Shown here: one piece after another, positions 4,510-19,430 of the stretch
Position numbering within the stretch: the stretch's first letter is position 1
Layout of the letters: each line of letters starts with the position of its first letter
Assembly (NCBI GenBank): GCA_041658725.1
Contig: JBAZZQ010000003.1
Span: 22,903 to 86,902 of the forward strand
Origin: Phycisphaerae bacterium
GTDB taxonomy: Bacteria; Planctomycetota; Phycisphaerae; JAAYCJ01
DNA: 64,000 nucleotides
Direction of reading: 5' to 3'
The notes under the pieces: model-generated
The model's database searches: none
What the model was told of the DNA's origin: nothing
The model's input: the letters and a program-made list of their open reading frames with translations, nothing else
Program-made: the position numbers and the translations under genes

Positions 4510-6507
4510 TTAAGCTGGACCCTCCTTAATGAGATTATGTCTAAAAATCTTCCGCAGGGCCAGGGCTGCCGGTTTGGGACGGCCATGAAAATCGACGATG
4601 GAAGTATTGGCCGAACAAGGATAACAATCGTGTCCCATCCAGATGATCACGCCGCCGCACTTCGGGAACCGGTCCTTGCAGGCCCTGACCGCAATGGTCA
4701 AGGCGTTTGCCTGCCGCTGCTGACTCCAGGCGACATACTCCGCCAGATCTTTCGGTTCACGTTCCTTTTCCTCCACAAACACGGGCCATTCGATCCACCA
4801 GGGGAGCGGACGCCGCCATAGGGGATTTTCCGCGCTCGCGGGAAAGGCCGGCAGATCGCCTTTAAAGTATTCAATGATGTCCACCGGACTGGCTCCGGGG
4901 GCACCGAGTTCGGACCGAAAGAGGGCATCGTCATTCTTCCAATATCGTATCCATTTGTCGTCCACTCGTCCTTCCACCTTCCACGGCCCGTGGACATCCC
5001 AATGCACGTTTTTGCCAAAATCCTCTTCCACACCCGAGGTTCGCGGCCCGGAGGGCGAACCCGAGAGGCATCGCCGTCCCGGGTCCAGTTCCGAAACGAT
5101 TTTCTTGAATCTCCGCAACAAGGGGTGGCTAAAATCGACGGGTTTGTTGCTTCCCACCTTGTTCCCGCTCTGATCGCCCAACAGTTCGTTGCCTCCGCAC
5201 CACAGGAAAAGCGAGGGATGATGCTGCCGGCGGACGATAAATGACCGGGCAATTTCCGAAAGTTCGGCGATGCTCTTTTTGTCTTCCGGCGGCCAGTTGT
5301 CTGCGCCCGACGAGGAGAGCGGAAATTCCTGCCAGACCAGGAATCCCATCTGGTCGCACATTGAATAAAAGACTTCCCGTTCCAGAATTCCTCCGCCCCA
5401 TACGCGAAGGACATTCACTCCCAAATCGCGATACACCTCCAGCCGTTTACGATAATCATCAGGGGTCACCTCGGCAAAATTCGCCAGAATGGGAACCCAA
5501 TTGATCCCCTGCAGAAAAATCGGCTTACCGTTGACCACGCAGAGCCACGGGTCGGCATTTTTCGGGGCGTCTTCACACCGCTTCCATTCGATTTGCCGGA
5601 ATCCCACCGGCCGGGCGACGGCGTCGTTCTCGGTTCCTTCTTTATCCAACAGTCGGCAATGCAGTGTATAGAGAGGCCGATTACCCTGACCGTTGGGCCA
5701 CCAGAGTTCGATCGGCAAATCCGTCCACGTTACACCCGCCGCCAATTCGGAACCGTTCACATCCTGTGTCTTTAGAATTCTTCCATCCTGCTCCAGCGAC
5801 AACCGAACTACCGCGTCCGCTTCTCCCAGGACCGAGCCTGCCATCCAAGCCTCGCCGGTTCTTGTTCGGTAATTGGTTGTGGTGGTGCAACGGAATTCCT
5901 TGATCTCCCATCCACGGCTGGCCTTCAGAAAGATTGAGTCCCAGATCCCGATCTGCACCAGCCGGCCCACCCAGTCCCACAGGTAATTGAATCGCACTTT
6001 CCATTCCGTCATCTGCGAAGTGAATCCGAATTGCCCCAGCCACCGCGGCGGACAGTCGAACACGATCTGCAGAAAATTCTTTTCCTTGGCCAAATGCGGG
6101 ATCAGGGCAAAGGTGTGCGGCACGTGAGAGCCTTTGAAGGTTCCCACTTCTTTGCCGTTGATAAGGACCCACCCGGAATAATCCAGTCCCCGGCAGACCA
6201 TATACAAGGCCGTGCCGTCTTGGATCCATTCATCGGGGATCACGGCCTCGTACATCCAGTGCCGGTTTTCCACCCACTCGCACTTGCGGGCATTCAACCC
6301 TTGGTTCCAGTCCGGAATAATACCTTTTTCCCGTAACGACCACTGCACCGATCCTGGAACCTTGGCTGTAATAGCTGGAACTTCCGGTATTTGCGATAAA
6401 GTCATATCCGGCCGTTGTTCCAGTCGCCAGATATGCGGAATCCAACCCGTCAATTTCCATTCCAGCTTTGATAAATCATAATAGTGTATTTTTCGCAATT
6501 GATCCAT
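4510..6507 (-). CDS. GH2 glycoside hydrolase, beta-mannosidase-like
   Basis: 665 aa. Motif WWPNGQGNRPLY matches the beta-mannosidase WWPxGxGxQPLY signature. AAAGGA RBS. Confidence 0.7.
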   Translation of the reverse strand: MDQLRKIHYYDLSKLEWKLTGWIPHIWRLEQRPDMTLSQIPEVPAITAKVPGSVQWSLREKGIIPDWNQGLNARKCEWVENRHWMYEAVIPDEWIQDGTALYMVCRGLDYSGWVLINGKEVGTFKGSHVPHTFALIPHLAKEKNFLQIVFDCPPRWLGQFGFTSQMTEWKVRFNYLWDWVGRLVQIGIWDSIFLKASRGWEIKEFRCTTTTNYRTRTGEAWMAGSVLGEADAVVRLSLEQDGRILKTQDVNGSELAAGVTWTDLPIELWWPNGQGNRPLYTLHCRLLDKEGTENDAVARPVGFRQIEWKRCEDAPKNADPWLCVVNGKPIFLQGINWVPILANFAEVTPDDYRKRLEVYRDLGVNVLRVWGGGILEREVFYSMCDQMGFLVWQEFPLSSSGADNWPPEDKKSIAELSEIARSFIVRRQHHPSLFLWCGGNELLGDQSGNKVGSNKPVDFSHPLLRRFKKIVSELDPGRRCLSGSPSGPRTSGVEEDFGKNVHWDVHGPWKVEGRVDDKWIRYWKNDDALFRSELGAPGASPVDIIEYFKGDLPAFPASAENPLWRRPLPWWIEWPVFVEEKEREPKDLAEYVAWSQQRQANALTIAVRACKDRFPKCGGVIIWMGHDCYPCSANTSIVDFHGRPKPAALALRKIFRHNLIKEGPA

Positions 6508-6554: not shown

Positions 6555-8615
6555 CTAAACCCGTCGGCATAATTTGATGGATAGGGGATCTCCCCCCATT
6601 TCTTCAAATAAAACGAGGGTATTGTGGTCGTTAAGCCAGTCGGCCGGCACATGATAATACCGTTGCGTGGGCTTACCAGTCCCGATATCCTGTATCCCTT
6701 GTTGTTTGAGCCGCTCCGGGGTCTGGCCAACGGCAGGGGCCAGCCAGTAGCGGCACAGGCATCGGCCGTTAAGCCAAACCAAACCTTTGTTCATTCCCTG
6801 AAGGTCCAGAGTCCATGGGCCTAGGCCCTTTGGCCGATCGAATAGGGTCCGCCACCAACTCAGGGGCTTACTACGACCAGCCTTCTTCTTCCAAGGGACC
6901 AGGTCTCCCGCCTCCTCAAACACCCGCCATCGCTCGCCCGCCAAGCCCGGCTGAATTTGCCACGGACCGCCGATCGGGAGATCCTTCCACGTTACTTTTC
7001 CCCACAACCCTTTGCGTTCATTGACCATATTTTCCCCGCCGATCAGCCAATCTCCTTTGATCAGGCCCAACCCGCAGCATAGCAGCGATAACTCATGGGT
7101 TCCTGCTTTCAGGTTCAAAGGGAAGGACTGCGTGAAATTCGGCCCTGACATAGGACCACGCTCTTCAACCAAAGGGTTTGCCGTCCAGGCCACCAGTTTC
7201 TCATCCACGTAGACATAAACAAAATCCGCCACGCCCGTCAGGCGTAATTCCCCGGCCCCCGCATGGTGCGGAGACACCGCGAAGTTCGTCGAATACCGGC
7301 AATAATCGGTCTTGTCGAGGGTGAAGGTCAATTGCTCCACGGGTACATTAACCGTAATGACCGGGGCAGAATTCTTTTTCAGTTCCCTCCATTGGGTAAA
7401 GGCGGAGAATGTTTTTTTCAAGGGCTTCATTTTTCTCCGTACCGTCGAATCGGTGGAAATCTCGGCTGTATTCATAAGGACCTTCCCATCGGCTAGGAGG
7501 ATCACCGATTGTCCCGCCAGCAAATACTTGTTTTCTCGGTACTCCACTTTCGCTGGCGCACAATCGTCGTTGCACAGGAAGATCAGCGGTTCATAGTCGT
7601 AGGCGACCTGCTGGGGCCCGAAAACCTTCGGCTGCGGCGGGTCGCGGCGGAGCAACTCATCCGAAAATTTCCAAAGGATATGGTGCAGTCGGGACAAGTG
7701 ATTATACTTCGTCGTGACCAATCCGTATTCATCGAGGGGGGCATCAGAATCGTAACTTGTCGTCTGCAGGAACATTGCCTCACGGCCAAAATTCGTCCCC
7801 CCATGCCACATGTAATAATTGTTGCCGGTTCCTCCCCCGGCAAAAAATCTCGCGGCGGCGTAAGCCGTGTTTTCCGCAGAGCGAACATGATGCGGATATC
7901 CATAGGTGTCGTACCATGCCTGCCAGTTTTCCGACCATACTGCCGGCTGGTCCGGATGCTCCATAAAATGTTTTTCGAGCAGCCGATGACCAAACCAATC
8001 GTTGATGGTCTCGATCGCTCCGGGCATTCCCCCAAGGCACATTACCCAGGGTACTCCCAGGTTCTGAGCCAAGCCCAGATTAATCGCCCAGGTCAAATAT
8101 TTTTGCCCTTCTTGCCCGTACTGGCTTGCGATGAGGGCATATTCATTTTCAATTTGGGCGAGGATGATTGGCCCGCCATTGGGGGCAAATTCTGGCCGAA
8201 GGTAATCGCAGAGAAACCGAACCCACTGGGCCATCTCCCGTTTGAACGGCTCGTTATTTGTTCGCATCTGAATCCCAGGCTCGTCCCGCAGCCAGGAAGG
8301 AAATCCCCCATAATTCGTCTCCGCGCAGATAAAAGGTCCGATCCGCAGGATCACGTGCAACTCGCGCTCCTGGGCCAGTCGGCAGAAATATTTCAAGTCC
8401 AGCCGGTCGGAGAAATCATACACCCTGCGCTGTTGTTCATGAAGATTCCAGAAGACATACGTCTCAATGGCGTTTAACCCCGCCTTCCGGCTAAGATCCA
8501 TCAGCCTCGGCCACATTTCCCGGCTGCTCCGGGGATAGTGGATCGCCCCGCTCAAGAGCAACGTCCGTTTTCCGTTGATCGTCACTGCTCGGTGATCGTA
8601 ACTGACTGCGGTCAT
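6555..8615 (-). CDS. GH35 beta-galactosidase
   Basis: 686 aa. Carries GH35 hallmarks GPFICAETNYGGFPSWL and the acid/base motif IILAQIENEY. Confidence 0.9.
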   Translation of the reverse strand: MTAVSYDHRAVTINGKRTLLLSGAIHYPRSSREMWPRLMDLSRKAGLNAIETYVFWNLHEQQRRVYDFSDRLDLKYFCRLAQERELHVILRIGPFICAETNYGGFPSWLRDEPGIQMRTNNEPFKREMAQWVRFLCDYLRPEFAPNGGPIILAQIENEYALIASQYGQEGQKYLTWAINLGLAQNLGVPWVMCLGGMPGAIETINDWFGHRLLEKHFMEHPDQPAVWSENWQAWYDTYGYPHHVRSAENTAYAAARFFAGGGTGNNYYMWHGGTNFGREAMFLQTTSYDSDAPLDEYGLVTTKYNHLSRLHHILWKFSDELLRRDPPQPKVFGPQQVAYDYEPLIFLCNDDCAPAKVEYRENKYLLAGQSVILLADGKVLMNTAEISTDSTVRRKMKPLKKTFSAFTQWRELKKNSAPVITVNVPVEQLTFTLDKTDYCRYSTNFAVSPHHAGAGELRLTGVADFVYVYVDEKLVAWTANPLVEERGPMSGPNFTQSFPLNLKAGTHELSLLCCGLGLIKGDWLIGGENMVNERKGLWGKVTWKDLPIGGPWQIQPGLAGERWRVFEEAGDLVPWKKKAGRSKPLSWWRTLFDRPKGLGPWTLDLQGMNKGLVWLNGRCLCRYWLAPAVGQTPERLKQQGIQDIGTGKPTQRYYHVPADWLNDHNTLVLFEEMGGDPLSIKLCRRV

Positions 8616-8851
8616 TAAATGTCCTTTTCTGCAACTTGCATAACCAAGACTGGTTTATCCATTTGAAGGCGATCGTAGCGTATCGATCCACTGCTTCAAA
8701 TAATCAACAGTTAGAAAACAAGCATCTTCCATCTATCGTCAAACACAGACGAGATGCCTTGATCAAATTCTTGCCGAAAAGCCTCTTTAAAAAAATGGGA
8801 GGCTCTAAATATAATACTTGACTATTGATGTAAAATCAATTACAATACCAG

Positions 8852-8876
8852 TGTAACGTTCAGGTAAACGTTACAC
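8852..8876. promoter_or_regulatory. Imperfect palindrome GTAACGTTCA-GG-TAAACGTTAC, candidate LacI-family operator
   Basis: 10-bp inverted repeat (9/10 match) around an AACGTT core, about 20 bp upstream of the lacI-remnant start. The same element recurs upstream of the intact lacI. Confidence 0.4.
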
Positions 8877-8895
8877 TTAAAATGTAATATTTCAC

Positions 8896-9286
8896 GATGA
8901 AGAAGAGATCTTTTGCAACAATTCGGGACATGGCGTCGATGTCCGGGCGAATGGCCGTCCCGGGTGATCGACTGAAAGTGCGTGGATTTTCCAATTGATA
9001 TCCCCACGGCCCCGAATTGCTTCAAGAAACGGTTCTCGCACCCAGAGATATGGGAGGCCTTGGGTCCGAGCCTTGGTCCACGGCATCTGTCTGTTACAGC
9101 ACCTTGACCGCTCTGGAGCCATACGCCCCTGCTAGCGCAAGGGCATCGAGGTTCAGAAGGTTTTTGCCATGGTGGCCTTTGACGAGCTTTGGGAGCGGGC
9201 GGAAATCGCGTATCTGGCAAGGCCGTTCCAGCAAGATTCTACCGCTCCGATTGAATGTCCGGGAATCCATTTTCAAAATGCTCTAA
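8896..9286 (+). pseudogene. LacI-family regulator pseudogene (internally deleted, frameshifted copy of the 13968-15008 gene)
   Basis: The first ~13 codons (MKKRSFATIRDMA) match the intact lacI N-terminus, and homology resumes at the C-terminal third (VCYSTLTALE...ILPLRLNVRESIFKML). The copy has multiple deletions and frame changes and is about 390 bp versus 1041 bp. Confidence 0.75.
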
Positions 9287-9305
9287 CGAGATTTCAGTTT
9301 CAATT

Positions 9306-9330
9306 CCTCCGGGTTGTGTTGACCCGGAGG
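9306..9330 (+). promoter_or_regulatory. Stem-loop CCTCCGGGT-N7-ACCCGGAGG in the leader of gene 9366
   Basis: Perfect 9-bp inverted repeat. It lies 36 nt upstream of the ATG and is not followed by a U-tract, so it is a leader structure or operator rather than a canonical terminator. Confidence 0.3.
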
Positions 9331-9365
9331 GGTTGAAACAAAATGTGTAACTAGGGAGTACGAAA

Positions 9366-12300
9366 ATGAAAAAGGTGGTTCTGTGTCTGATCGGTCTTGG
9401 GATGGCGTTGACATTCCCAACGCTTGCGGCGGCAACGCCGCCCGCCCTGATCTTTGGGGCGGATTACAACTACAGCGGGATAGTCAAGGCCAACGAAAGC
9501 ATCACGGGGAATACGAACGTCCGCGCCCTTGGGAGCGGCTCGGAAGATTCCTTCGGTTTTTCTTTTCAGATCGCCGACGGGAAGTGGGGCGGCGGGATGG
9601 AGGTGCTTCCGGAGCAATACAGCAGCCGCGTCCGCTATGATGTTCCAGACAATTTCAGCACCAGCAACGGAATGGTGGAAGTCTGGTTCAAGATGACGGG
9701 AACAAACAACAGCGATACCTACCTGATCGACCTGGGAGGCGGAAATTATCTGAAGTGGGAGGTTTCGAGTTTGGACCTGGTGGCGGTGCTGGCGGGGGCG
9801 ACGGTGCGGTACCATGTCGGAAGTATCGACGATAACGCCTGGCACCACGCGGCCATGTCCTGGGGCGACGGCGGCCACTGGAAAACCGGCAAACGGCTGT
9901 GGTTCGACGGCTATGAACGGGCGTGGAACACCGGCCATACGACCGCCTTGAGCGGGGTGACGCACATCGGCGTGGGCGCGCCGAGCTATGGTGGGGTCAC
10001 GGCGATTATCTACGATGAACTGCATGTCTACGATGTTGGCTACAACGATTTGGTGTACTTTGCTCCGAACCAAGGCGAGCCGGGATACTACGGTGAGGTG
10101 GAGCCTCTGGCCACGCCCTATGCAAACCCGCCCGCCCTGATCTTTGGGGCGGATTACAACTACAGCGGGGTGATCAATGCCAACATGAGCATTAATGGAA
10201 GCACCCTGCTCCGTCCTGATGGCTCGGGGGAAGAGGATTCTTTCGGCGATCTGACCTCGGAGGCCACCGGATACGGCAAGTGGGGCGGCGGACTCCGAAT
10301 GGGGCCCAGCAACTGGAACAGCCGCGCCCGCTATGATGTTCCCGACAATTTCAGCACCGCCAATGGGATGGCGGAGGTCTGGTTCAAGATGATGGGGAAC
10401 AATGACAGCGATACCAACCTGATCGATCTTGGAGGTGGGAACTTTTTACGCTGGGAGGCCTCGAGCGGAGATTTGGTGGCCGTATTGGCGGGGGCAACGT
10501 TGCGATACAACGTCGGACAAATTGACAACGATACGTGGCACCACGCGGCCATGTCCTGGGGCGATGGCGGCCACTGGAAAACCGGCAAACGACTGTGGTT
10601 CGATGGCTATGAGCGGGCGTGGAATACCGGCCATACCACCGCCCTGAGCGGCATATCGCATGTCGGTGTGGGCGCGATTAGCTACGGCGGGAACACAGTC
10701 ATTATGTTTGATGAACTGCATGTTTACGATAGCGGCTACAACGATCTGGTGTACTGGTCTCCGAACCAGGGCGAGCCGGGATACTACGCGGAGGTTGGAC
10801 CCTTGATACCGCTTACGTATTCCATCAACACCGCCGCAGGTACACCCTTTAGTCCGGGCGTCCGAGGCCACCATCCTGAATGCATCGGGGTCCATCGCGG
10901 TGAATACACCACAGGAATTCCGAAGCTGTTGCCGGTTTCCGACGGCACGTTCCTGCGGGGCCTAGCGGCGGGCTTGAAGGCCGAAACCTACGACTGGCGC
11001 AACCGCTTTGAGTATGGCGTGCCGGCCAACGGGCTGGGTCAGCCGACGATCGAGTTTCTGCGATACCAGCGGGACCGGAATTCCAGCATGATCAATACCG
11101 TCAACACCCGGGGCCTGACGCGGCAGGTGGGACAAACGTGCGAGTATTATGATACGCGTCTGTCCACGCTGGTGAGCCTGGCGACCGACTGGGTGCGGTA
11201 CACCAACCACATCGTGCAGACGTACCGGCTGGGTGATACGATTTCCGACCCGAGAGATGCGGGCATTGTCAACTCCCTTTCCTGGAAAACACAAGGGGAT
11301 ACGTCCGATCAATTCGAGCCACTGCTTTTCCCCCAGGAAGCCGCAGTGCCCAAAGTGACGTATTGGGAGATCGGCAACGAACCGTCGATGAACTTGTCGG
11401 CAACTAATTCCTACACCCTGACCCCTGCTCAATTTCATGATCGGTACGCGGCGATCGCGGCGGCGATGAAGGCCGAAGACCCGACCATCAAGGTCGGCCC
11501 CAGTGACCTACCGGGTGGCGATTACATCAATGCGGTCGTGTCGGATCTCAGTTTGCCCGTGGACGTTGTCTATTACCACACGGTCTTCCGGGGCAACCTT
11601 GGGACAACCAATGTGGACGACATTATATCCCTTCTGAACGGTATCTACTGGGATGAAAGGAGCGTTATGGACCCGATTGTCGCCATCATTGCCGCCAGCG
11701 GACGTGATCCCGCGACCATTCCCCTGGCGATTACGGAATGGAACCCGGACTATGCCTATATGGATGCCCCTTCGATCGGACGCATGGCGCAAGCTCTGGG
11801 ATGCATGCAGGCGGTCTTCAGTTTTGCTCGGATGGGGATATTCGATGCCAATTACCTCAAGTGGCCGGCGGATACCCGGGACGGCATGGAGTACCCGGTT
11901 TACAAGGCTTGGCAGGTCCTCAACGACCACATGGGCGACACATTGGTTGACTTCTGGAACGAAGCGTGTTTCCAACTTTATACCACGAAAGATAACGCGA
12001 CGGGCCAAGTGGCGGTCTGGGGCCTGAACTTCAGCAATACCACCGACAAGACCATGCAGATATCCCTTGACCAACTCCCGCCAGGAGCGACCAATGTCAC
12101 ATGGAAGCATCTGGGGGCACTTTCCGGTCTCTCCACATTATTGACCGGGAATATTTCTGCGTACGATGCGGGTGGCCCTCAGGTGAATGTGGATTGGAAG
12201 ACTTGGGATTTAAGCGGCATCTCGACCTCAAGCCTGACGTTCCATGTTCCCCGCGCGAGCATGTGCGTGCTACTAGTCGGTTCACCGTCATTGAAGGTCA

Positions 12301-13463
12301 GCCCGCAGACCCAGACGGTCTTCTGGCCGGCCGCGCAATTCAACATCACCGTGAACAATTCCGGGGCTGGAACCCTGGATTGGACTGCCGCAGTCATCTC
12401 CGGAGCGAGCTGGCTTTCCATTGGCACGACCAGCGGGACCGACCACGGGACAATTACCGTCAGCGCCGATGAAAACTCCACCGCTGCCGCCCGAACGGGA
12501 ATCATCCGTGTAACGTCCGGTGCCGTATCCAAAGACGTGACGGTGGTGCAATCCACCATGCCGCCGACTTCGAACATCACTTCGCCGCTCCAGGACAATA
12601 CGTCCACCGCTCCGGCTACTATTGCCATCACGGATAATGCCACCGATAGCAACGGCACGATCAACAAGGTGGAATTCTACAACAACGACGTCTTGCTGGG
12701 CACAGATAACAACAGTTCCGGCGGATGGACCTACAGTTGGGCGAACGTGGCGGCCAGCGGCGACCATGGAATCAGTCTGACCGCGAAAGCCTACGATAAC
12801 GACAACATGAGTACGACGTCCAACCCAGTCACCATTACCGTCACTGACAGTGCCCTCAAGTGTTATTGGAAGCTCGACAATACGAGTGGCACTACGGCGG
12901 TCGACTCATCGGGCATCGGCAACGTCGGCACCACGTACAACAGCCCAAGTTGGGTGACGGGAAAGATAAGCAACTGCCTATCTTTTGATGGTTCCAACGA
13001 TTACGTCCAGAAAACCAGTGCTTCGAGTCTGCCGGCCGCCAACGCCAACCAGACCGAGTGTTTCTGGTTCTATGTCTCAAGTAACCCTTCAGCCAAGAAG
13101 ACCGCTCTGGCTGTTACGGGCAGTTCCTCAGCCGTCAATATCGGGTTTGTGAGTAGTAGCGGGATGAAGTTCGGAGTGTGGAAGTATAACAACACCGTCC
13201 TGGTCAAGGCCGCCATGCCCGCGGCCGGGGCCTGGCATCATGCTGCCTACACAAAGAGCGGCAGCACCAACACCTTGTACATCGACGGTTCTCCGGTAAA
13301 TACCTCCACCACGAGCACCAATACGGCGTCGGCGACGACAATCAACGCCGGACGTACTGCCAGCGGCGCGTACTATTGGCCTGGTAAATTGGATGAAATC
13401 CGCATCTATAACCGAGCTTTGTCGGCGACGGAAATTGCCGCCTTGGCGCAAGGCAAACAATAG
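9366..13463 (+). CDS. Secreted multidomain glycoside hydrolase: signal peptide, 2x LamG-like modules, GH-A clan (GH39/GH30-like) TIM-barrel domain, BACON-like domain, Ig-like domain, C-terminal Laminin_G_3 domain
   Basis: - 1365 aa with a signal peptide (MKKVVLCLIGLGMALTFPTLAAA).
- Two ~220-aa repeats carrying WHHAAMSWGD, KRLWFDG and YDELHVYD (LamG-like).
- GH-A clan acid/base motif YWEIGNEPS and nucleophile motif LAITEWNPDY.
- BACON-like segment SWLSIGTTSGTDHGTITVSADENSTAAARTGIIRV...VTVVQ.
- C-terminal LamG signature LDEIRIYNRALSATEI. Confidence 0.85.
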   Translation: MKKVVLCLIGLGMALTFPTLAAATPPALIFGADYNYSGIVKANESITGNTNVRALGSGSEDSFGFSFQIADGKWGGGMEVLPEQYSSRVRYDVPDNFSTSNGMVEVWFKMTGTNNSDTYLIDLGGGNYLKWEVSSLDLVAVLAGATVRYHVGSIDDNAWHHAAMSWGDGGHWKTGKRLWFDGYERAWNTGHTTALSGVTHIGVGAPSYGGVTAIIYDELHVYDVGYNDLVYFAPNQGEPGYYGEVEPLATPYANPPALIFGADYNYSGVINANMSINGSTLLRPDGSGEEDSFGDLTSEATGYGKWGGGLRMGPSNWNSRARYDVPDNFSTANGMAEVWFKMMGNNDSDTNLIDLGGGNFLRWEASSGDLVAVLAGATLRYNVGQIDNDTWHHAAMSWGDGGHWKTGKRLWFDGYERAWNTGHTTALSGISHVGVGAISYGGNTVIMFDELHVYDSGYNDLVYWSPNQGEPGYYAEVGPLIPLTYSINTAAGTPFSPGVRGHHPECIGVHRGEYTTGIPKLLPVSDGTFLRGLAAGLKAETYDWRNRFEYGVPANGLGQPTIEFLRYQRDRNSSMINTVNTRGLTRQVGQTCEYYDTRLSTLVSLATDWVRYTNHIVQTYRLGDTISDPRDAGIVNSLSWKTQGDTSDQFEPLLFPQEAAVPKVTYWEIGNEPSMNLSATNSYTLTPAQFHDRYAAIAAAMKAEDPTIKVGPSDLPGGDYINAVVSDLSLPVDVVYYHTVFRGNLGTTNVDDIISLLNGIYWDERSVMDPIVAIIAASGRDPATIPLAITEWNPDYAYMDAPSIGRMAQALGCMQAVFSFARMGIFDANYLKWPADTRDGMEYPVYKAWQVLNDHMGDTLVDFWNEACFQLYTTKDNATGQVAVWGLNFSNTTDKTMQISLDQLPPGATNVTWKHLGALSGLSTLLTGNISAYDAGGPQVNVDWKTWDLSGISTSSLTFHVPRASMCVLLVGSPSLKVSPQTQTVFWPAAQFNITVNNSGAGTLDWTAAVISGASWLSIGTTSGTDHGTITVSADENSTAAARTGIIRVTSGAVSKDVTVVQSTMPPTSNITSPLQDNTSTAPATIAITDNATDSNGTINKVEFYNNDVLLGTDNNSSGGWTYSWANVAASGDHGISLTAKAYDNDNMSTTSNPVTITVTDSALKCYWKLDNTSGTTAVDSSGIGNVGTTYNSPSWVTGKISNCLSFDGSNDYVQKTSASSLPAANANQTECFWFYVSSNPSAKKTALAVTGSSSAVNIGFVSSSGMKFGVWKYNNTVLVKAAMPAAGAWHHAAYTKSGSTNTLYIDGSPVNTSTTSTNTASATTINAGRTASGAYYWPGKLDEIRIYNRALSATEIAALAQGKQ

Positions 13464-13707
13464 AACGGACCAATACTGTTCATGCTTATAAGTAGGCAAT
13501 CAGCAGTGTAGCCGAAACTAAGCAAGACGATCAAAACGGTGGGTCGAAAGACCTGCCGTTTTCTTATTCCAAGATCGATTTGACCATCGTTCAAATTCTG
13601 GGACTTAAAAGCGCGTAAAGACTTTGCATTAGACGTGAGTTGTTTAAAATGCCATCTCTCAAAATTGTACTGATAATATATTGTCATTAATATGCTTAAA
13701 AAAATCT

Positions 13708-13841
13708 CGTAACCGTTCAGGCCACCTTCCGTCATTGCGAGCGCAGCGAAGCAATCTCGTAATGACGCCGGTTAATGAAGGAACGAGATTGCTTCGTCGC
13801 TGCGCTCCTCGCAATGACCACGAGGTGGTCTGAACGGATAC
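13708..13841. mobile_element. MITE-like element (~134 bp) with imperfect terminal inverted repeats and a 7-bp flanking direct repeat
   Basis: TIR-L CGTAACCGTTCAGGCCACC and TIR-R GGTGGTCTGAACGGATAC match at 16 of 18 positions as reverse complements. The interior is a further long imperfect palindrome (GTCATTGCGAGCGCAGCGAAGCAATCTCGT / ACGAGATTGCTTCG..CTCGCAATGAC). AAAATCT lies immediately outside both ends. Confidence 0.45.
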
Positions 13842-13922
13842 AAAATCTTATGCCCCAAAAAAAAGGAATATTCGAAAAATTAAGGGCTTGACTTTTATCG
13901 CAAAAGAAATTATATTGGATAG

Positions 13923-13946
13923 TGTAACGTTCAGGTGAACGTTATA
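13923..13946. promoter_or_regulatory. Imperfect palindrome GTAACGTTCA-GG-TGAACGTTAT, candidate LacI autoregulatory operator
   Basis: 10-bp inverted repeat (9/10 match) located 22 bp upstream of the lacI ATG. It is a paralog of the 8852-8876 element. Confidence 0.4.
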
Positions 13947-13967
13947 TTGTAAAGGTAATGTTCCACC

Positions 13968-15008
13968 ATGAAGAAAAGTTCTTTCGCGACAATTCGGGAC
14001 GTAGCGGCGGCGGCTGGGGTGTCCATGACCACAGTGTCAGACATCATTACGGGGCGATCTGATCGGTTTAAGGAAGAGACATTAATGCGGGTCCGCAAGA
14101 CGGCGGAAAAGCTCAGTTACCGGCCCCATCTGGGGGCTTCGGCGATGCGAAGCCAACGGTTCAATACCATCGGTCTGATCCTTTCGCAGTCACCGTTTTA
14201 CGAGGCCAAATTAGTTGAGGGCGTGGATGAAGTCGCTCATGCCCGGGAACTCGGGCTCATGCTGGTTCACATCGGCCCTGCGGAAGAGGATTTGCCGAGC
14301 TTGGTTACCCACAACCAGGTGGATGGGTTGATCGTGGACTGGACCTCTCCGAAGAAGATCGGAGTGGCAATTGAGAACTATCGTATTCCCGCCGTCTGGG
14401 TCAACAACGATCAGCATGCCCCGGAGAACTGCATCTGGCCGGACGACGAGGCGGGCGGGCGAATGGCCACGGAACATCTGATTGCTCTTGGTCATCGGCG
14501 AATCGCATTTTTGCGAGTTCCCCAGGCCATGCACCCTAGTCAGGAATTTCGATTGAAGGGTTATTGCCAAGCGTTGACCGAGGCGGGTTTGGAGCCCCGG
14601 GTGATCGACTGCGAGTGCTTGGATTTTCCCTTGGATATACCCACGGATCCGAATTGCTTTAAGAACCGGTTCTCACACCCGGAGATATGGGCGGACATGG
14701 AAACGGGATCCTGGCCCACGGCGTTTGTCTGTTACAGCACCTTGACCGCCCTGGAGCTATACGCCGCCTGCCAGCGTAAGGGCGTCGAGGTCCAGAAAGC
14801 CTTCGCCGTGGTGTCCTGTGACGAGCTTTTGGAGCGGGTGGAAATCGCGTATCCCGCCATCACCACCGTGGTGGTGGACCATGCCCTGATGGGGCGTCTG
14901 GCCGTGGACATGCTCTGCGAACGGATCGAAAACAATGGCAAGGCCGTTCCCAGCAAGATACTGCCGCTCCGATTAAATGTCCGGGAGTCCAGTTTCAAAA
15001 TGCCCTAA
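13968..15008 (+). CDS. LacI-family transcriptional regulator
   Basis: 346 aa. N-terminal HTH reads ATIRDVAAAAGVSMTTVSDII, followed by a periplasmic-binding-protein-like sugar-binding fold. Confidence 0.9.
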   Translation: MKKSSFATIRDVAAAAGVSMTTVSDIITGRSDRFKEETLMRVRKTAEKLSYRPHLGASAMRSQRFNTIGLILSQSPFYEAKLVEGVDEVAHARELGLMLVHIGPAEEDLPSLVTHNQVDGLIVDWTSPKKIGVAIENYRIPAVWVNNDQHAPENCIWPDDEAGGRMATEHLIALGHRRIAFLRVPQAMHPSQEFRLKGYCQALTEAGLEPRVIDCECLDFPLDIPTDPNCFKNRFSHPEIWADMETGSWPTAFVCYSTLTALELYAACQRKGVEVQKAFAVVSCDELLERVEIAYPAITTVVVDHALMGRLAVDMLCERIENNGKAVPSKILPLRLNVRESSFKMP

Positions 15009-15087
15009 CGAGATTTTAGTTTCAAATTCGCCGGGTTGTGTTGATCCGGAGGGGTTGAAACAAAATGTATAACAAAGGAGTACGAAA

Positions 15088-15912
15088 ATGAAAAGTGTGG
15101 TATTGGGTCTGATCGGTCTTGGGATGGTGTTGATATTCCCGACGCTTGTAGCGGCAACGCCGGACTACCTGGTCTTTGGGGCGGATTACAACTACAGCGG
15201 GGTGGTCAACGCCAACGAAAGCATTACGGGAAGCACGGTGATCCGTCCGCAGGGATTAACTGACGGCGATTCCTTTGGAACGATCACTCAGGTCGCGGGT
15301 GGGAAATACGGCGGAGGGATGTTGGTGGCACCCAACGAGAATAATCAGCGAACCCGGTATGATGTGCCCAGCGGGTTCAGCACCAGCAACGGGATGGCGG
15401 AAGTCTGGTTTAAACTCGAATCGGCCGATAAGATTACTCTGCTCGATCTGGGTGGGGACAACCTTGTGCGGTGGGACCCCGGCAACGGCAACCTGAACAC
15501 CTATTTGGGTTCGGCTGGCCTGTACTGGTACGCGGGGAATATCGCCGACGGCAATTGGCACCACCTGGCCGTGAGTTGGGGCGACTCAGCCAATTGGAAG
15601 AAAGGTAAACGGGTGTGGTTCGACGGTGCGAACGTGGCTTGGAACGATGGCGATTACTCTCTCTTGAACCCAACTTCTTATATCGGCACCCAGGAAGCAA
15701 ATGCTGCCGGGGGCGGGAACGTTTATTTTGATGAACTCCATGTCTATGGTCCAGGCTGGCAGAACCTCGTGTACTTTGCTCCGGGCCAAGTCGCGCCGGG
15801 TTACGTCGGCGAAATCACCGGGTTGGCCGCGGCCGTACCCGAGCCGGCAACCTTGATTTTATTGATGTCGGGATTAGTCGGTTTCATCGTCCGCAGACGA
15901 ACCATCGCATAA
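15088..15912 (+). CDS. Secreted LamG-like module protein with PEP-CTERM sorting signal
   Basis: 274 aa. Has a signal peptide and one copy of the ADYNYSGVVNANESITGS...WHHLAVSWGD...KRVWFDG...FDELHVYG module. C-terminus is VPEPATLILLMSGLVGFIVRRRTIA (PEP motif, TM helix, basic tail). AGGAG RBS. Confidence 0.85.
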   Translation: MKSVVLGLIGLGMVLIFPTLVAATPDYLVFGADYNYSGVVNANESITGSTVIRPQGLTDGDSFGTITQVAGGKYGGGMLVAPNENNQRTRYDVPSGFSTSNGMAEVWFKLESADKITLLDLGGDNLVRWDPGNGNLNTYLGSAGLYWYAGNIADGNWHHLAVSWGDSANWKKGKRVWFDGANVAWNDGDYSLLNPTSYIGTQEANAAGGGNVYFDELHVYGPGWQNLVYFAPGQVAPGYVGEITGLAAAVPEPATLILLMSGLVGFIVRRRTIA

Positions 15913-16040
15913 GCTAAAAACGATTTATCAGCCGGACCGCCTTCGCAAGCGATCCGGCTCTTTGAGGCACGTGTCCCAGATCGGTCCGAGGTTGTCGCCT
16001 CGGCGAAGCAAGGTATATAATTACATAAAGGAGAATCAAG

Positions 16041-19000
16041 ATGGGTACGAGAAAAATTGGTTATGGAGTGATGTTGGTGTCCTTGTCGATCATTCTTGCC
16101 CACACGGCGGTTTCGCAAGCAACGCCGGATTATCTAATCTTTGGGGCCGATTACAACTACAGCGGGGTGGTCAATGCCAATGAAAGTATTACTGGAAGCA
16201 CTGAACTCCGGCCGGAGGGCTCGGGGGGAGGAGACTCCCAAGGTACGATAACCCAGGTCACCGGGGGAAAATACGGAGGGGGTATGTTGGTGGCCGCCAT
16301 GGGGAATGATCAGCGGACGCGGTATAGTCTGCCCAGTGGGTACGACGCTTACAACGGGATGGTGGAAGTCTGGTTTAAAACGTCTAATGCGGACGATAAG
16401 CTTACCCTGCTCGTTGTGGGTGAGGACAACCTTGTGCGCTGGGATCCAAGCACTGGCAACCTGACTGCCTACCTAGGCTCGGCCGGCATGACCTGGTACG
16501 CGGGGAATATCGCCGACGGTAATTGGCACCACGTGGCCTTGAGTTGGGGTGATTCCGCCAATTGGAAGAAAGGCAAACGGCTGTGGTTTGACGGTGCAAA
16601 CGTGGCGTGGAGCGATACGAACTACTCCGTCATGAACCCGGCTACTTATCTCGGTACTCAAGAAGGAAATGCCGCCGGTGGCAATGGAGACGTTTATTTT
16701 GATGAGCTGCATCTCTATGGTCCAGGCTGGCAGAACCTTGTGTATAACTTGGGCGGAGCGCCGGGTTATTTCGGCGAAGTCGGTCCGTTGGCCGAGGCCC
16801 TCCCGGGAACAACCCCGGTGGGTATGGTCTTTGGCGCCGATTACAATTCCGCCGGGATCATCAATGCCAATACGAGCTCAACGGCCAGCAAGAACGTCCG
16901 TGCCCCTGGGAGCGGACCGGAAGATTCCTACGGTCTTTCTTTCCAGCTTGCCGACGGGAAATGGGGCGGCGGGATGAAGGTGCTGCCGGACCAAAGCAAC
17001 AGCCGCGTCCGCTATGATGTTCCAAGCGGTTTCAGCTCCGACAACGGGATGGTGGAAGTCTGGTTCAAGATGACGGGAACCAACAACAGTGACACCAACC
17101 TGATCGACCTGGGGGGCGGGAATTTCCTGCGGTGGGAGGTTTCCAGCGGAGACCTGGTGGCGGCGATGGGGGCGGCGGTAGTGCGATACAACGTCGGGCG
17201 AATCGACGACAATACCTGGCACCATGCGGCCATCTCCTGGGGTGCAGGCGGCACATGGAAACGGGGTAAACGACTGTGGTTTGATGGTGCGAACCGAAAT
17301 TGGAACGATGGCGACTTCACCCCCTTGAGCGGCGTGACGCATATCGGCATAGGTGCGCCAGGCTATGGCGGCGGGGATACGGCAATTATTTACGATGAGC
17401 TTCATGTCTATGACGTTCGCTACAATGACTTGGTGTACTTGGCTCCGAGCCAAGGCGAGCCTGGATACTCCGCGACGATTGGTCCCTTGTTTCCGGCTCT
17501 TGCCACCCCAACCACGGTCTATACCATCAACACCGCCGGGGGCACGTCCTTTAGTCCGGGCGTCCGAGGTCACCATCCCGAATGTGTCGGTGTCCATCGC
17601 GGGGAATACCTCCGGGGCATTCCGAAGGTCCTGGCGGTCTCGGACGGTACGTTCCTGAGGGGTCTGGCGGCCGGGATGAAGGCCGAGACCTACGATTGGC
17701 GAAACCGGTTTGAATATGGTGTGCCCGCGAACGGACTGGGCCAACCGACGATTGATTTCCTGCGTTATCAACGGGATCGAAACTCCACGATGATCAACAC
17801 CGTCAACACCCGGGGCTTGACGCGGCAGTCGGGAACGACCTGCGAATATTACGACACGAACATTACTACCTTAACGAACCTGGCCGCTGATTGGGTTCGC
17901 TACACTAACCACATCGTGCCGACGTATCGGCTGGGCAATACGATCACCGACCCGAGAGACGCGGGGATTCTCAACTCCCTTTCCTGGAAGACGGAGGGTG
18001 ATACGGCGGATCAATTTGAACCCCTGCTTTTCGCCCAGGAAAGCGCGGTCCCCAAAGTCATGTACTGGGAGATCGGAAATGAACCATCCTCGAACTTGTC
18101 GGCGACCAATTCCTATGTGTTGACCCCGGCCCAATATCGGGCTCGGTATCAGGCAATCACGGCGGCGATGAAGGCCGAAGATACGACCATCAAAGTCGGT
18201 CCGAGCGACGTGACGGCCGGAACTTACATTGACGAGGTCGTGTCGGATTCTTCTTTGCCGGTGGACATCGTTTATTATCACGCGACCTTTAGCGGCGATC
18301 TCGGGTCGCTTACCGATTCAAGTCAAATTCAAAACTTCTTGAACAACATCTATAGCGGTCAGCAGAGCCTCAAGAATGGGATTACGTCGATCATTTCCGC
18401 CAGCGGGCGAGACCCTGCAACCATTCCTCTGGCGATTACGGAATGGAACCCGAACTATTCATTGGCGGATACCCCTTCTGTCGGACGCATGTCGCACGCT
18501 CTGGGGTGCATGGAGACGGTGTTCAGCTTTGCCCGGCTGGGAATCTTCGATGCCAATTACCTCAAGTACCCGGCGGATTGCCGGGACGGGATGGAGTACC
18601 CGGTCTATAAGGCTTGGCAGGCTCTCAACGACCACATGGGCGATGTTCTGGTGGACGTCCATACCGAAACCGATTTCCGGATGTACACGACGAAAAACAG
18701 CGCGACGGGCCAGGTGGCGGTCTGGGGCTTGAATTTCAGTGACGCCAACGACAAGACCATGCAAATTACCCTCGACCAACTACCACAAGGTGTTACCAAT
18801 GCCACGTGGATGCGTTTGGGCGCCCTCTCCGGGACCAGCACGTTGCTGAGCGGAAATATATCTTGGTACGATGGCGGCCCTCAAGTGGACGTGGACTGGC
18901 GGACGTGGGACGTGAGCGGCATCTCGACTTCGAGCCTGACGTTCCAGGTTCCCCGCGCGAGCATGTGCGTACTGGTGGTGGGAACCTCGTCGCTAAAGGT

Positions 19001-19430
19001 TTCCCCGCAGACGCAAACTGTTTTCTGGCCCGCCACCTCGTTTGCGGTGACGGTTGGGAATACCGGAGGCGGTGCCCTAAGCTGGACGGCCCAGGTAATT
19101 TCTGGAACAGACTGGCTTTCCATTAACGTGGCCAGTGGGACCGATCACGGGACGATTCTCGTGACCGCCGCACAAAACTCCTCCGCTGCCCGAACGGGAA
19201 TCATCCGCGTGACGTCCGGTTCCGTATCCAAAGACGTTACGGTGGTGCAGGGCGGGCCCGTGACCATCCCCGGAGATGTCAACGGGGACGGCGTGGTCAA
19301 TGCGGACGATCTGTCGATCGTGCTGACGAATATGGATTCCAAGCCTCCGACGGATGCCCGTGCGGACTTGGATCAGGACGGTGAAGTCACATCGTCCGAC
19401 CTGGCGATCGTGCTGGCAAATATGCCATAA
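16041..19430 (+). CDS. Secreted multidomain glycoside hydrolase paralog: 2x LamG-like modules, GH-A clan domain, BACON-like domain, C-terminal type-I dockerin
   Basis: 1129 aa. The GH core is about 75% identical to gene 9366 (YWEIGNEPSSNLS, LAITEWNPNYS). C-terminal dockerin repeats are DVNGDGVVNADDLSIVL and DLDQDGEVTSSDLAIVL. Confidence 0.85.
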   Translation: MGTRKIGYGVMLVSLSIILAHTAVSQATPDYLIFGADYNYSGVVNANESITGSTELRPEGSGGGDSQGTITQVTGGKYGGGMLVAAMGNDQRTRYSLPSGYDAYNGMVEVWFKTSNADDKLTLLVVGEDNLVRWDPSTGNLTAYLGSAGMTWYAGNIADGNWHHVALSWGDSANWKKGKRLWFDGANVAWSDTNYSVMNPATYLGTQEGNAAGGNGDVYFDELHLYGPGWQNLVYNLGGAPGYFGEVGPLAEALPGTTPVGMVFGADYNSAGIINANTSSTASKNVRAPGSGPEDSYGLSFQLADGKWGGGMKVLPDQSNSRVRYDVPSGFSSDNGMVEVWFKMTGTNNSDTNLIDLGGGNFLRWEVSSGDLVAAMGAAVVRYNVGRIDDNTWHHAAISWGAGGTWKRGKRLWFDGANRNWNDGDFTPLSGVTHIGIGAPGYGGGDTAIIYDELHVYDVRYNDLVYLAPSQGEPGYSATIGPLFPALATPTTVYTINTAGGTSFSPGVRGHHPECVGVHRGEYLRGIPKVLAVSDGTFLRGLAAGMKAETYDWRNRFEYGVPANGLGQPTIDFLRYQRDRNSTMINTVNTRGLTRQSGTTCEYYDTNITTLTNLAADWVRYTNHIVPTYRLGNTITDPRDAGILNSLSWKTEGDTADQFEPLLFAQESAVPKVMYWEIGNEPSSNLSATNSYVLTPAQYRARYQAITAAMKAEDTTIKVGPSDVTAGTYIDEVVSDSSLPVDIVYYHATFSGDLGSLTDSSQIQNFLNNIYSGQQSLKNGITSIISASGRDPATIPLAITEWNPNYSLADTPSVGRMSHALGCMETVFSFARLGIFDANYLKYPADCRDGMEYPVYKAWQALNDHMGDVLVDVHTETDFRMYTTKNSATGQVAVWGLNFSDANDKTMQITLDQLPQGVTNATWMRLGALSGTSTLLSGNISWYDGGPQVDVDWRTWDVSGISTSSLTFQVPRASMCVLVVGTSSLKVSPQTQTVFWPATSFAVTVGNTGGGALSWTAQVISGTDWLSINVASGTDHGTILVTAAQNSSAARTGIIRVTSGSVSKDVTVVQGGPVTIPGDVNGDGVVNADDLSIVLTNMDSKPPTDARADLDQDGEVTSSDLAIVLANMP

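Follow-up and report, generated by a model that had tools for sequence, protein, structure and literature searches.

Most transcription factors of the LacI family regulate their own genes, and their binding sites are even palindromes with CG at the centre (PMC4052901). The closest described systems are autoregulated local LacI/GalR repressors with regulons of the RegPrecise type (Ravcheev et al. 2014, PMC4052901). These display a helix-turn-helix and a periplasmic-binding-protein-like sensor domain, a palindrome with a central CG between the promoter and the repressor's own start, and a second site before a neighbouring glycoside-utilisation gene; the locus described here is similar on each point. 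Overlapping sites approximately 13 bp apart are known in the family (PMC4052901), and a double site of this kind is predicted here. The locus differs in that the predicted operator is a 28-bp palindrome (11-nt arms, a 6-nt spacer and CG centres 12 bp apart) and not a single palindrome of 16–22 bp. The searches of this analysis found no described regulon for the host, which belongs to the Phycisphaerae (Planctomycetota) and is represented by a metagenome-assembled genome.

The window is the whole 64-kb stretch of DNA that was analyzed, and derives from this genome of an uncultured Phycisphaerae bacterium. It has a sugar-utilisation locus with an intact lacI gene and a second, broken copy of the same repressor gene. 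The gene order is GH2, GH35 (minus strand), surface glycosidase gene A, lacI, gene B, gene C, a DUF1559 protein gene, GH42 and an ABC transporter. All genes, leaders and promoter-like sites given below with coordinates are on the plus strand. If the predicted operators function as such, the locus represents a LacI-controlled glycan-utilisation cluster, and the neighbouring GH2, GH35 and GH42 genes suggest that a galactoside-type sugar is the probable LacI effector. Repeats are prone to misassembly, and in a metagenome-assembled contig the broken copy might have come from chimeric joining or from the collapse of strain variants. This is extremely improbable: a separately assembled contig, ENA ERZ27247322 (45 kb, compared with 100 kb for the longest contig), is 100% identical across 21 kb including both copies, the copies, with 13% divergence and several indels between them, are too far apart for assembler confusion, and unique sequence flanks the broken copy on both sides.

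Gene A (positions 9366–13463) encodes 1365 aa with a signal peptide, two LamG-like modules, a glycosidase-like core, and BACON, Big_7 and Laminin_G_3 domains. A sequence search of the PDB with the core gave weak matches to a glucosidase and a beta-xylosidase (E about 1e-3), hence merely the term glycosidase-like. Gene B (15088–15912, 274 aa) has a signal peptide, one LamG-like module and a PEP-CTERM anchor. Gene C (16041–19430, 1129 aa) has its own signal peptide and promoter-like site, with BACON and dockerin domains. A and C are old paralogues that are collinear over approximately 1060 aa, with an aa identity of 66% and a dS of 0.92. The five LamG-like modules of A, B and C show heavy mosaic conversion, e.g., module 1 of A has identities of 0.85–0.93 to module 2 of C (positions 9531–9705) and of 0.92–0.95 to module 2 of A (positions 9855–9885). 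Co-regulation of C with A and B is doubtful, since gene B is followed by a hairpin and the promoter-like site of gene C, at 15992–16021, is without an operator.

The intact lacI gene (positions 13968–15008) encodes 346 aa and is at the same position as its orthologue in two related lineages. As originally predicted, this downstream copy is intact; the Pfam domains LacI, Peripla_BP_1 and Peripla_BP_3 are all present. The helix-turn-helix (PF00356) is found at residues 8–53 with 43.6 bits (cut-off 27), and the effector domain scores 93.8 bits with PF13377 and 75.9 bits with PF00532. When the LacI sequence was compared with the whole window by tblastn, no lacI fragments were found besides the intact gene and the remnant, and the gene is the single surviving regulator of LacI type in the window, as had also been proposed.

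Positions 8850–9515 of the window are collinear with positions 13921–15237 at approximately 87% identity, as determined by gapped alignment and a repeat finder (families D7, D15, D16, D17 and D19). The block begins with the 28-bp palindrome, the 5'UTR and lacI codons 1–11 (8850–8929 and 13921–14000, 84%). It continues with a 13-nt island (8944–8956 and 14456–14468, 13/13), 8957–9061 and 14594–14698 (84%), 9074–9127 and 14712–14765 (91%), 9128–9214 and 14767–14853 (85%), 9215–9227 and 14936–14948 (13/13), and lastly 9228–9515 and 14950–15237 (88%). The surviving segments thus show a uniform identity of 84–91% on either side of the deletions. Collinearity had been predicted for 8840–9440 and 13915–15160; the alignment agrees, with the block extending approximately 75 nt further into gene A, to 9515 and not 9440.

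The upstream lacI copy (positions 8897–9286) is a pseudogene, as shown by three large deletions, three 1-nt frameshifts and two in-frame stops. It keeps 390 of the 1041 nt of lacI, i.e., codons 1–11 (8897–8929), the 13-nt island (8944–8956) and the last third of the gene (8957–9286), and has 86.9% nt identity to the intact gene over these 390 nt. Compared with the intact gene, approximately 455 nt (14001–14455), 125 nt (14469–14593) and 82 nt (14854–14935) are missing; the small changes are a 13-nt segment replaced by 12 nt and two 1-nt deletions. The stops are at 8973–8975 (TGA) and 9133–9135 (TAG), and the longest frame that opens at the original ATG has 33 codons (8897–8998). A tblastn comparison with the intact LacI matches aa 1–17, 211–241, 248–265, 268–297 and 331–345, spread over three frames, with E-values of 1e-21 to 4e-5 for four collinear segments. 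Apart from the out-of-frame 13-nt island, nothing is left of residues 18–210, and with them the recognition helix and one half of the sensor domain have been lost. Alignment of the two blocks and tblastn thus both bear out the original prediction of a pseudogene with start and end kept and with deletions and frameshifts, and the region 8896–9286 proves to be related to lacI. Substitutions at codon positions 1, 2 and 3 are 5/6/6 on the remnant's side and 2/4/7 in the intact lineage, which fits neutrality, although the counts are small. With the operator and leader on its flanks preserved, transcription of the pseudogene probably continues.

A promoter-like site (TTGACT, 17 nt, TACAAT) is found before the remnant at 8818–8846, and a similar one (TTGACT, 17 nt, TATATT) before intact lacI at 13888–13916. 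The first is followed by the predicted operator O_A (8850–8877), a perfect 28-bp palindrome AGTGTAACGTT-N6-AACGTTACACT which may also be viewed as a pair of overlapping LacI-type sites of 16 bp whose central CG pairs are 12 bp apart. O_lacI (13921–13948), a putative autoregulatory site, has the same 28-bp architecture but a degenerate right arm (AACGTTATATT). The 26-nt operator core is found at these two sites in 64 kb, with 0 expected; no further operator was found in the window, including the 16-bp form present in the related lineage L004. In O_A, 22 of the 22 arm positions are kept though the surrounding block has diverged by 13% (P about 0.05). The arms with their 6-nt spacer are present twice in the window, in L003, twice in L004 (plus the 16-bp form) and in L011. 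A palindrome with a central CG near regulated promoters and conserved at orthologous loci is what the rule for the family describes (PMC4052901). Two metagenome scans for the operator gave no match, but this is uninformative as to the rarity of the operator, since the scanned collection evidently lacks the JGI contigs L004, L006 and L008, which carry sites.

The right end of the block is sharp. Codons 1–50 of gene A (9366–9515), which encode the signal peptide and the start of LamG-like module 1, are identical to codons 1–50 of gene B (15088–15237) at 128 of 150 positions, and identity falls to 83/150 (55%) in the next 150 nt. Past codon 50, sliding windows show that gene A resembles module 2 of C and then module 2 of A, i.e., a conversion mosaic. 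To the left, operator excepted, identity drops to 66–69% (13/19 in the 5'UTR and 20/29 between the two promoter-like sites), well under the 87% of the block; the site at 8818–8846 is probably gene A's own old promoter. The left boundary is defined by short segments of 19 and 29 nt, and the identity step at the operator is only marginally significant, because AT-rich promoter DNA, if neutral in both copies, should accumulate differences faster than a pair of pseudogene and gene. The block is also younger than its surroundings, with a dS of 0.24 for codons 1–50 of A and B, in comparison with the value given above for the bodies of A and C. Such a sharp-ended block of higher identity within an older, weaker homology is characteristic of gene conversion or ectopic recombination. 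The remnant is also nearer to its in-genome paralogue (86.9%) than to the orthologues in L003 (65.4%) and L004 (57.2%), as a copied tract would be. By this comparison, 87% to the lacI of the window but only 65% to that of L003, the remnant arose, or was homogenised, within this lineage.

The relatives show what may have preceded the copy. In L004, whose LacI is 61% identical, the gene at the position of A (X4) shares with A the promoter and 28-bp operator in front, and lacI, a hairpin and a gene B homologue (B4) are downstream of X4, an arrangement as in the window. In L003, a 75%-identity relative, lacI with the shared operator is located between an A/C-like gene and DUF1559-GH42. In L011 the order is promoter-operator, 270 nt, hairpin, B' and C', with no lacI in front of B'. 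No lacI remnant was found at the protein or DNA level in the X4 leader of L004 or in the 270-nt leader of L011. The recipient site, an operator and promoter in the state before the lacI copy, would be represented by one relative (L004, LacI 61% identical), and the searched databases hold only three related lineages, two of them known from short contigs, so that the ancestral state is inferred from few data. A single tandem-duplication history for the window, L003, L004 and L011 was considered, but no single-event model fits. Only the net event is given here, because the promoter-operator-hairpin-B-C cassette is located after lacI in the window but after GH42 in the organism of L011.

We propose, with a probability of roughly 60%, that ectopic recombination placed a copy of lacI, with its hairpin leader and the 5' end of gene B, at the LacI-controlled promoter of gene A, and that the lacI of this copy then decayed. 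Gene A would originally have had its own promoter and 28-bp LacI operator, like its counterpart in L004. In this lineage, homologous recombination would have copied a tract that began near the operator or the start of lacI, spanned lacI with its hairpin leader and ended at codon 50 of gene B, and placed it in front of gene A. Intact lacI and codons 1–50 of gene B would be the donors, and both ends of the copy would fall within shared sequence, at left in the promoter-operator and at right where the LamG-like module has its conserved start. The same net product could come from gene conversion or from unequal crossing-over with later deletions. The redundant second lacI would then have decayed neutrally by the three large deletions, the small frameshifts and the two stop codons, leaving the operator, leader hairpin, ribosome-binding site and new signal peptide in place. 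Gene A would now be transcribed from its promoter through a leader of approximately 490 nt, mostly dead lacI, and the surviving LacI would repress A in trans as well as itself and B.

The original prediction had the A, B and C array arise by duplication of a unit of lacI plus a surface-protein gene. The part that stands is that the upstream block consists of a decayed lacI paralogue, a leader and the 5' end of a gene. In the form stated, the origin of the array lacks support: the dS difference between the block and the bodies of A and C, the edge at codon 50, the closeness of the remnant to the lacI of the window and the L004 operator without a lacI copy speak against a one-step duplication. 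A modified form is possible but considerably less probable than the copy proposed above. In this form an old tandem duplication of the whole unit (promoter-operator, lacI, leader and surface-protein gene) gave rise to A and to B/C, the upstream lacI has long been dead, and the 87% identity results from later homogenising conversion. The 70 nt preceding each of the two operators show a weak but significant similarity (an alignment score of 12, compared with -5.4 +/- 4.1 in shuffles), so that the promoters do have homology from an older layer. A and C are also collinear paralogues, and the L011 layout could conceal a fully decayed lacI. Conversion is also frequent at this locus, which makes divergence an unreliable clock, as an old duplicate homogenised later would look identical. 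However, the leaders of L004 and L011 have no trace of lacI, and a lacI dead for so long would provide little homology to sustain full-length conversion, yet the segments are uniform in identity. Moreover, A and C separated at about the time when the L003 lineage split off, and the remnant is clearly younger than that split.

The leader that would have been copied along with lacI (9287–9365) is identical at 71 of 79 positions to the original leader between lacI and gene B (15009–15087). It contains a stem loop at 9297–9339 with a perfect 19-bp stem, the loop GUGUU, a folding energy of -33 kcal/mol and a z of -5.4, and a Shine-Dalgarno sequence (GGGAG, 9354–9358). The stem loop of the donor leader (15019–15061) has the same loop and is weaker, at -21 kcal/mol. 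The loop UGUGUUG is invariant in four of four copies (two in the window, one each in L011 and L004) while the stem sequences differ, and the hairpin is 27–31 nt upstream of the next start codon, which belongs to gene A in one case and in three cases to gene B or a homologue. Loop and distance are thus conserved in three lineages. No copies beyond these four were found in the searched loci (window, L003, L004 and L005), and Rfam covariance models gave no match at E <= 1 in positions 8400–16300. These descriptions are from single folds and a direct hairpin scan, as the automatic alignment placed the L004 sequence poorly and so weakened an RNAalifold run on the four leaders. The stem loop might be a cis-regulatory RNA, so far undescribed, that serves surface-protein operons of the Phycisphaerae; this is a rather unlikely suggestion. 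If true, selection would have kept the transfer of the hairpin to gene A together with the new signal peptide, and the dead lacI would only have been carried along.

The remnant itself might be kept as a regulatory leader, either through the 33-codon upstream frame or through a length or structure that tunes translation or stability of the A transcript. The lacI start codon and first 11 codons survive, the hairpin of the A copy is a perfect stem stronger than that of the donor, and its loop and spacing are conserved. Yet this conserved hairpin is part of the original B leader and not of the remnant. Divergence is even along the remnant and equal to that of the rest of the block, substitutions are, on small counts, even over codon positions, and the equivalent genes of the relatives are controlled without a lacI-derived leader. 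Such a function is very improbable.

The proposed copy and decay is of little general significance, but would represent a clean, well-bounded case in which recombination between repeated surface-protein genes dragged a regulator along, with redundancy and a transcribed pseudogene in a 5' leader as the result. The same step would have given the target gene A a new leader and signal peptide. For annotation of this little-studied group, the practical yield is a predicted motif for the LacI operator, together with a sketch of the regulon at one glycan-utilisation locus of the Phycisphaerae. A further caution is that the "intergenic" 750 nt before gene A are not empty regulatory DNA.

Nothing here suggests a programmed variation system; recombination between repeated genes ordinarily yields such by-products, and the event is of a known kind and not a new type of system. 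As with other pseudogenes from decayed redundant paralogues, there is a recent paralogue in the genome, with deletions, frameshifts, stops and, on small counts, substitutions even over codon positions, and a bias to deletion that has here reduced the gene to 37% of its length. Unlike in the ordinary case, the dead regulator is within the 5' leader of a gene that is probably controlled by its live paralogue. The locus also resembles surface-protein genes whose modules undergo concerted evolution or mosaic conversion, in that the five LamG-like modules are closer to one another within the genome than to the L004 orthologues, and there is a patchwork of tracts of 0.85–0.95 identity. It differs from module conversion elsewhere in that one tract appears to have brought a complete regulatory gene and a signal peptide.

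The segment at window positions 8850–9515, which spans the start of surface-protein gene A, is collinear with positions 13921–15237 as determined by gapped pairwise alignment and a repeat finder, in agreement with the original prediction of two collinear blocks. The upstream copy retains a 28-bp palindrome, the 5'UTR and lacI codons 1–11 (8850–8929), a 13-nt island of mid-lacI with 13/13 identical positions (8944–8956), the final third of lacI in four pieces (8957–9286), and the 79-nt leader followed by the first 150 nt of the next gene. Identity to the downstream copy is 0.84–0.91 in the individual surviving segments. Compared with the intact lacI, the remnant (8897–9286) lacks approximately 455, 125 and 82 nt, has 12 nt in place of 13 nt at one site, and has lost two single bases. 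A tblastn comparison with LacI gives matches to aa 1–17, 211–241, 248–265, 268–297 and 331–345 in three frames, and stop codons are present at 8973 and 9133. These lesions make the upstream lacI copy a pseudogene, as had been proposed. The changes assignable to the remnant lineage are distributed 5/6/6 over codon positions 1/2/3, which, with such small counts, is compatible with neutral decay. The downstream lacI (13968–15008, between genes A and B) is intact and encodes 346 aa, with the LacI helix-turn-helix and both periplasmic-binding-protein-like sensor domains above Pfam cut-offs. No other lacI-like or operator-like sequence is found in the 64-kb window, and a single regulator placed between A and B/C is also what had been predicted. 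An assembly artefact is very unlikely, because a contig from a separate assembly is identical through both copies.

Genes A, B and C are on the plus strand and encode secreted proteins. Gene A (9366–13463; 1365 aa) has two LamG-like modules (A1, 9441–10100; A2, 10131–10790), a glycosidase-like core, and BACON, Big_7 and Laminin_G_3 domains. Gene B (15088–15912; 274 aa) has one LamG-like module (15163–15800) and a PEP-CTERM anchor. Gene C (16041–19430; 1129 aa) has two LamG-like modules (C1, 16128–16770; C2, 16818–17470), a core as in A, a BACON domain and a dockerin. GH35 and GH2 genes are on the minus strand in the upstream part of the locus, and a DUF1559/prepilin-type gene, a GH42 gene and an ABC transporter are found downstream of A/B/C. 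The core of A (10770–12330) and C (17470–19030) is shared with X4 and X8, two A/C-like genes of related lineages, and carries YWEIGNEP and ITEWNP motifs. It has no Pfam match and only weak matches to glucosidase and beta-xylosidase structures (E ~1e-3), and may belong to a glycosidase family of clan GH-A that is very divergent or as yet undescribed. Between the gene A stop and the lacI promoter is a near-perfect palindrome of ~137 nt (13709–13845), which folds with -82.6 kcal/mol (z -10.7), includes GTCATTGCGAGCGCAGCGAAGCAATCTCG as a motif and has no second occurrence in the window. Possible identities are a miniature mobile or REP-like element and a strong bidirectional terminator.

LacI relatives are few in a collection of 5.8 billion proteins, with identities of 75%, 61%, 53% and 44%. 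On the 525-kb contig L004 (LacI 61%) the gene order is GH2 (minus strand), X4, lacI, B4, DUF1559, GH42 and ABC transporter, where B4 has a signal peptide, a LamG-like module and PEP-CTERM. In the 75% relative (contigs L003 and L006–L009) the order is X8, with a C-like C-terminus, then lacI, DUF1559 and GH42. Both orders place lacI where the intact window copy stands, so the remnant upstream of A is the additional copy. It shares 86.9% identity with the window lacI, against 65.4% and 57.2% with the L003 and L004 orthologues, which places its origin or last homogenisation within this lineage. The LacI with 53% identity (contig L005) has another motif upstream (2590–2635), TTGAAACGTT(T/A)CGA twice, ~18 bp apart and adjoining a GH10 gene. 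The different motif and neighbour suggest an altered operator specificity and a different regulon.

Contig L011, which shares its source sample with an L003-type contig, carries B', a homologue of B with 78% identity, in the order promoter, operator, 270 nt, hairpin, B', terminator and the beginning of a C-like gene (C'). The 270 nt between operator and hairpin show no similarity to lacI. Homology to the window (77%) begins 12 nt ahead of the lacI stop and extends across B and into C, and the hairpin-B-C arrangement is therefore common to both. The left flank (L011 1–88) is 90% identical to L003 5946–6035, just past GH42; where L011 has the cassette, L003 has a minus-strand tRNA gene (~6190–6265). 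Between these close relatives the cassette from promoter to C' has thus undergone strain-level gain or loss. As its location varies by lineage, no single-event history accounts for the window, L003, L004 and L011 together.

The original prediction had the array arise by duplication of a lacI-plus-surface-protein unit. Two age layers argue against such a simple history. Codons 1–50 of A and B have a dS of 0.24, and remnant and lacI have diverged by 13%, whereas dS is 0.92 between the A and C cores and 0.78 between the B module and C1. The right edge of the young block is sharp, with identity falling from 128/150 to 83/150. Past this edge, A1 is nearest to C2 (0.85–0.93 over 9531–9705) and further on to A2 (0.92–0.95 over 9855–9885). 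In L004 the 283 nt from operator to X4 start have neither a trace of lacI nor the leader hairpin, and the X4 signal peptide is C-type rather than B-type. The partial X8 protein is 75% identical to C and 68% to A, at least as close as A and C are to each other; the A/C split is accordingly about as old as speciation from the 75% lineage, and the remnant is younger. On the left side only 13/19 positions of the 5'UTR and 20/29 of the promoter are identical, but the 70 nt upstream of the two operators are more similar than shuffled controls, which points to an older layer of homology. The unit duplication as source of the array thus has partial support; an older whole-unit duplication beneath the young layer is conceivable but rather unlikely.

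The most likely history is that the leader and signal-peptide coding region of A were replaced by a copied segment, in which lacI then decayed. The net event would be a copy of lacI, the hairpin leader and B codons 1–50, with the ends of the tract in earlier homology, i.e., in the promoter-operator at the left end and in the conserved module start (FGADYNYSG...NESITG) at the right end. Gene conversion would give this in one step; an unequal crossover between modules followed by deletions between modules and between operators would give an equal product. The mosaic pattern of the modules shows that such exchanges are common in this locus. The five LamG-like modules form two in-genome groups, {A1, A2, C2} and {B, C1}. 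Each is nearer to modules in its own genome than to those of L004, with patchwork tracts of up to 0.95, which indicates concerted evolution through repeated conversion. The redundant second lacI would then have decayed with the deletion bias that is usual in bacteria. A remnant of this kind is what recombination and decay of paralogues ordinarily produce, here within a glycan locus under LacI control.

Gene A is now probably transcribed with a leader of ~490 nt that consists mostly of dead lacI. The block also carried a stem loop, present before A (9297–9339; 19 bp, -33 kcal/mol, z -5.4), before B (15019–15061; -21 kcal/mol), in L011 (about 472–518) and in L004 (11205–11227). The GUGUU loop, closed by U-G (UGUGUUG), is invariant and the element is 27–31 nt from the start codon, while the stem sequences vary (CCGGGU/ACCCGG versus UUUUCGGC/GCCGAAAA); covariation is thin, with three lineages. 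No other occurrence is found in the window or L003–L005, and there is no U-tail or Rfam match. It is possibly an mRNA-stability or translation element carried along with the block.

Both copies begin with a sigma-70-like promoter followed by the palindrome AGTGTAACGTT-N6-AACGTTACACT (8850–8877 and 13921–13948). The arms, separated by 6 nt that vary in sequence, are also found upstream of lacI in L003 (853–880), upstream of X4 and of lacI in L004 (5568–5595 and 9963–9990), and, slightly degenerate, upstream of B' in L011. A compact 16-bp form, AGTGTAACGTTACACT, adjoins GH2 in L004 (5301–5317) and occurs only there. From this conservation across relatives we infer that the palindrome is a LacI operator, as we infer the recombination path from the sequences. 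The right arm is degenerate in the putative autoregulatory operators of the window and L003; the operator before A is perfect, with 22/22 arm positions retained versus 13% divergence of the surrounding block (P ~0.05). In the relatives, surface-protein genes with an operator-bearing promoter but no adjoining lacI are the rule, so the natural reading is that the surviving LacI controls A in trans, and A is probably repressed at this site. The effector is probably of the galactoside type, given the GH2, GH35 and GH42 genes in the locus. A GC-rich hairpin lies 3' of gene B (~15929–15960, within 15913–16040), and the equivalent hairpin in L011 has a T-run; a separate promoter-like site (15992–16021), which lacks an operator, precedes gene C. 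Because of these two features C may be outside the LacI regulon. Each arm of the palindrome has the central CG that is typical of LacI-family sites, and one reading of the 28-mer is a pair of 16-bp sites that overlap, their centres separated by 12 bp. In a comparative survey of the LacI family, most members have even palindromes with a central CG, 72% are autoregulated, and 110 operons have overlapping sites ~13 bp apart (PMC4052901).
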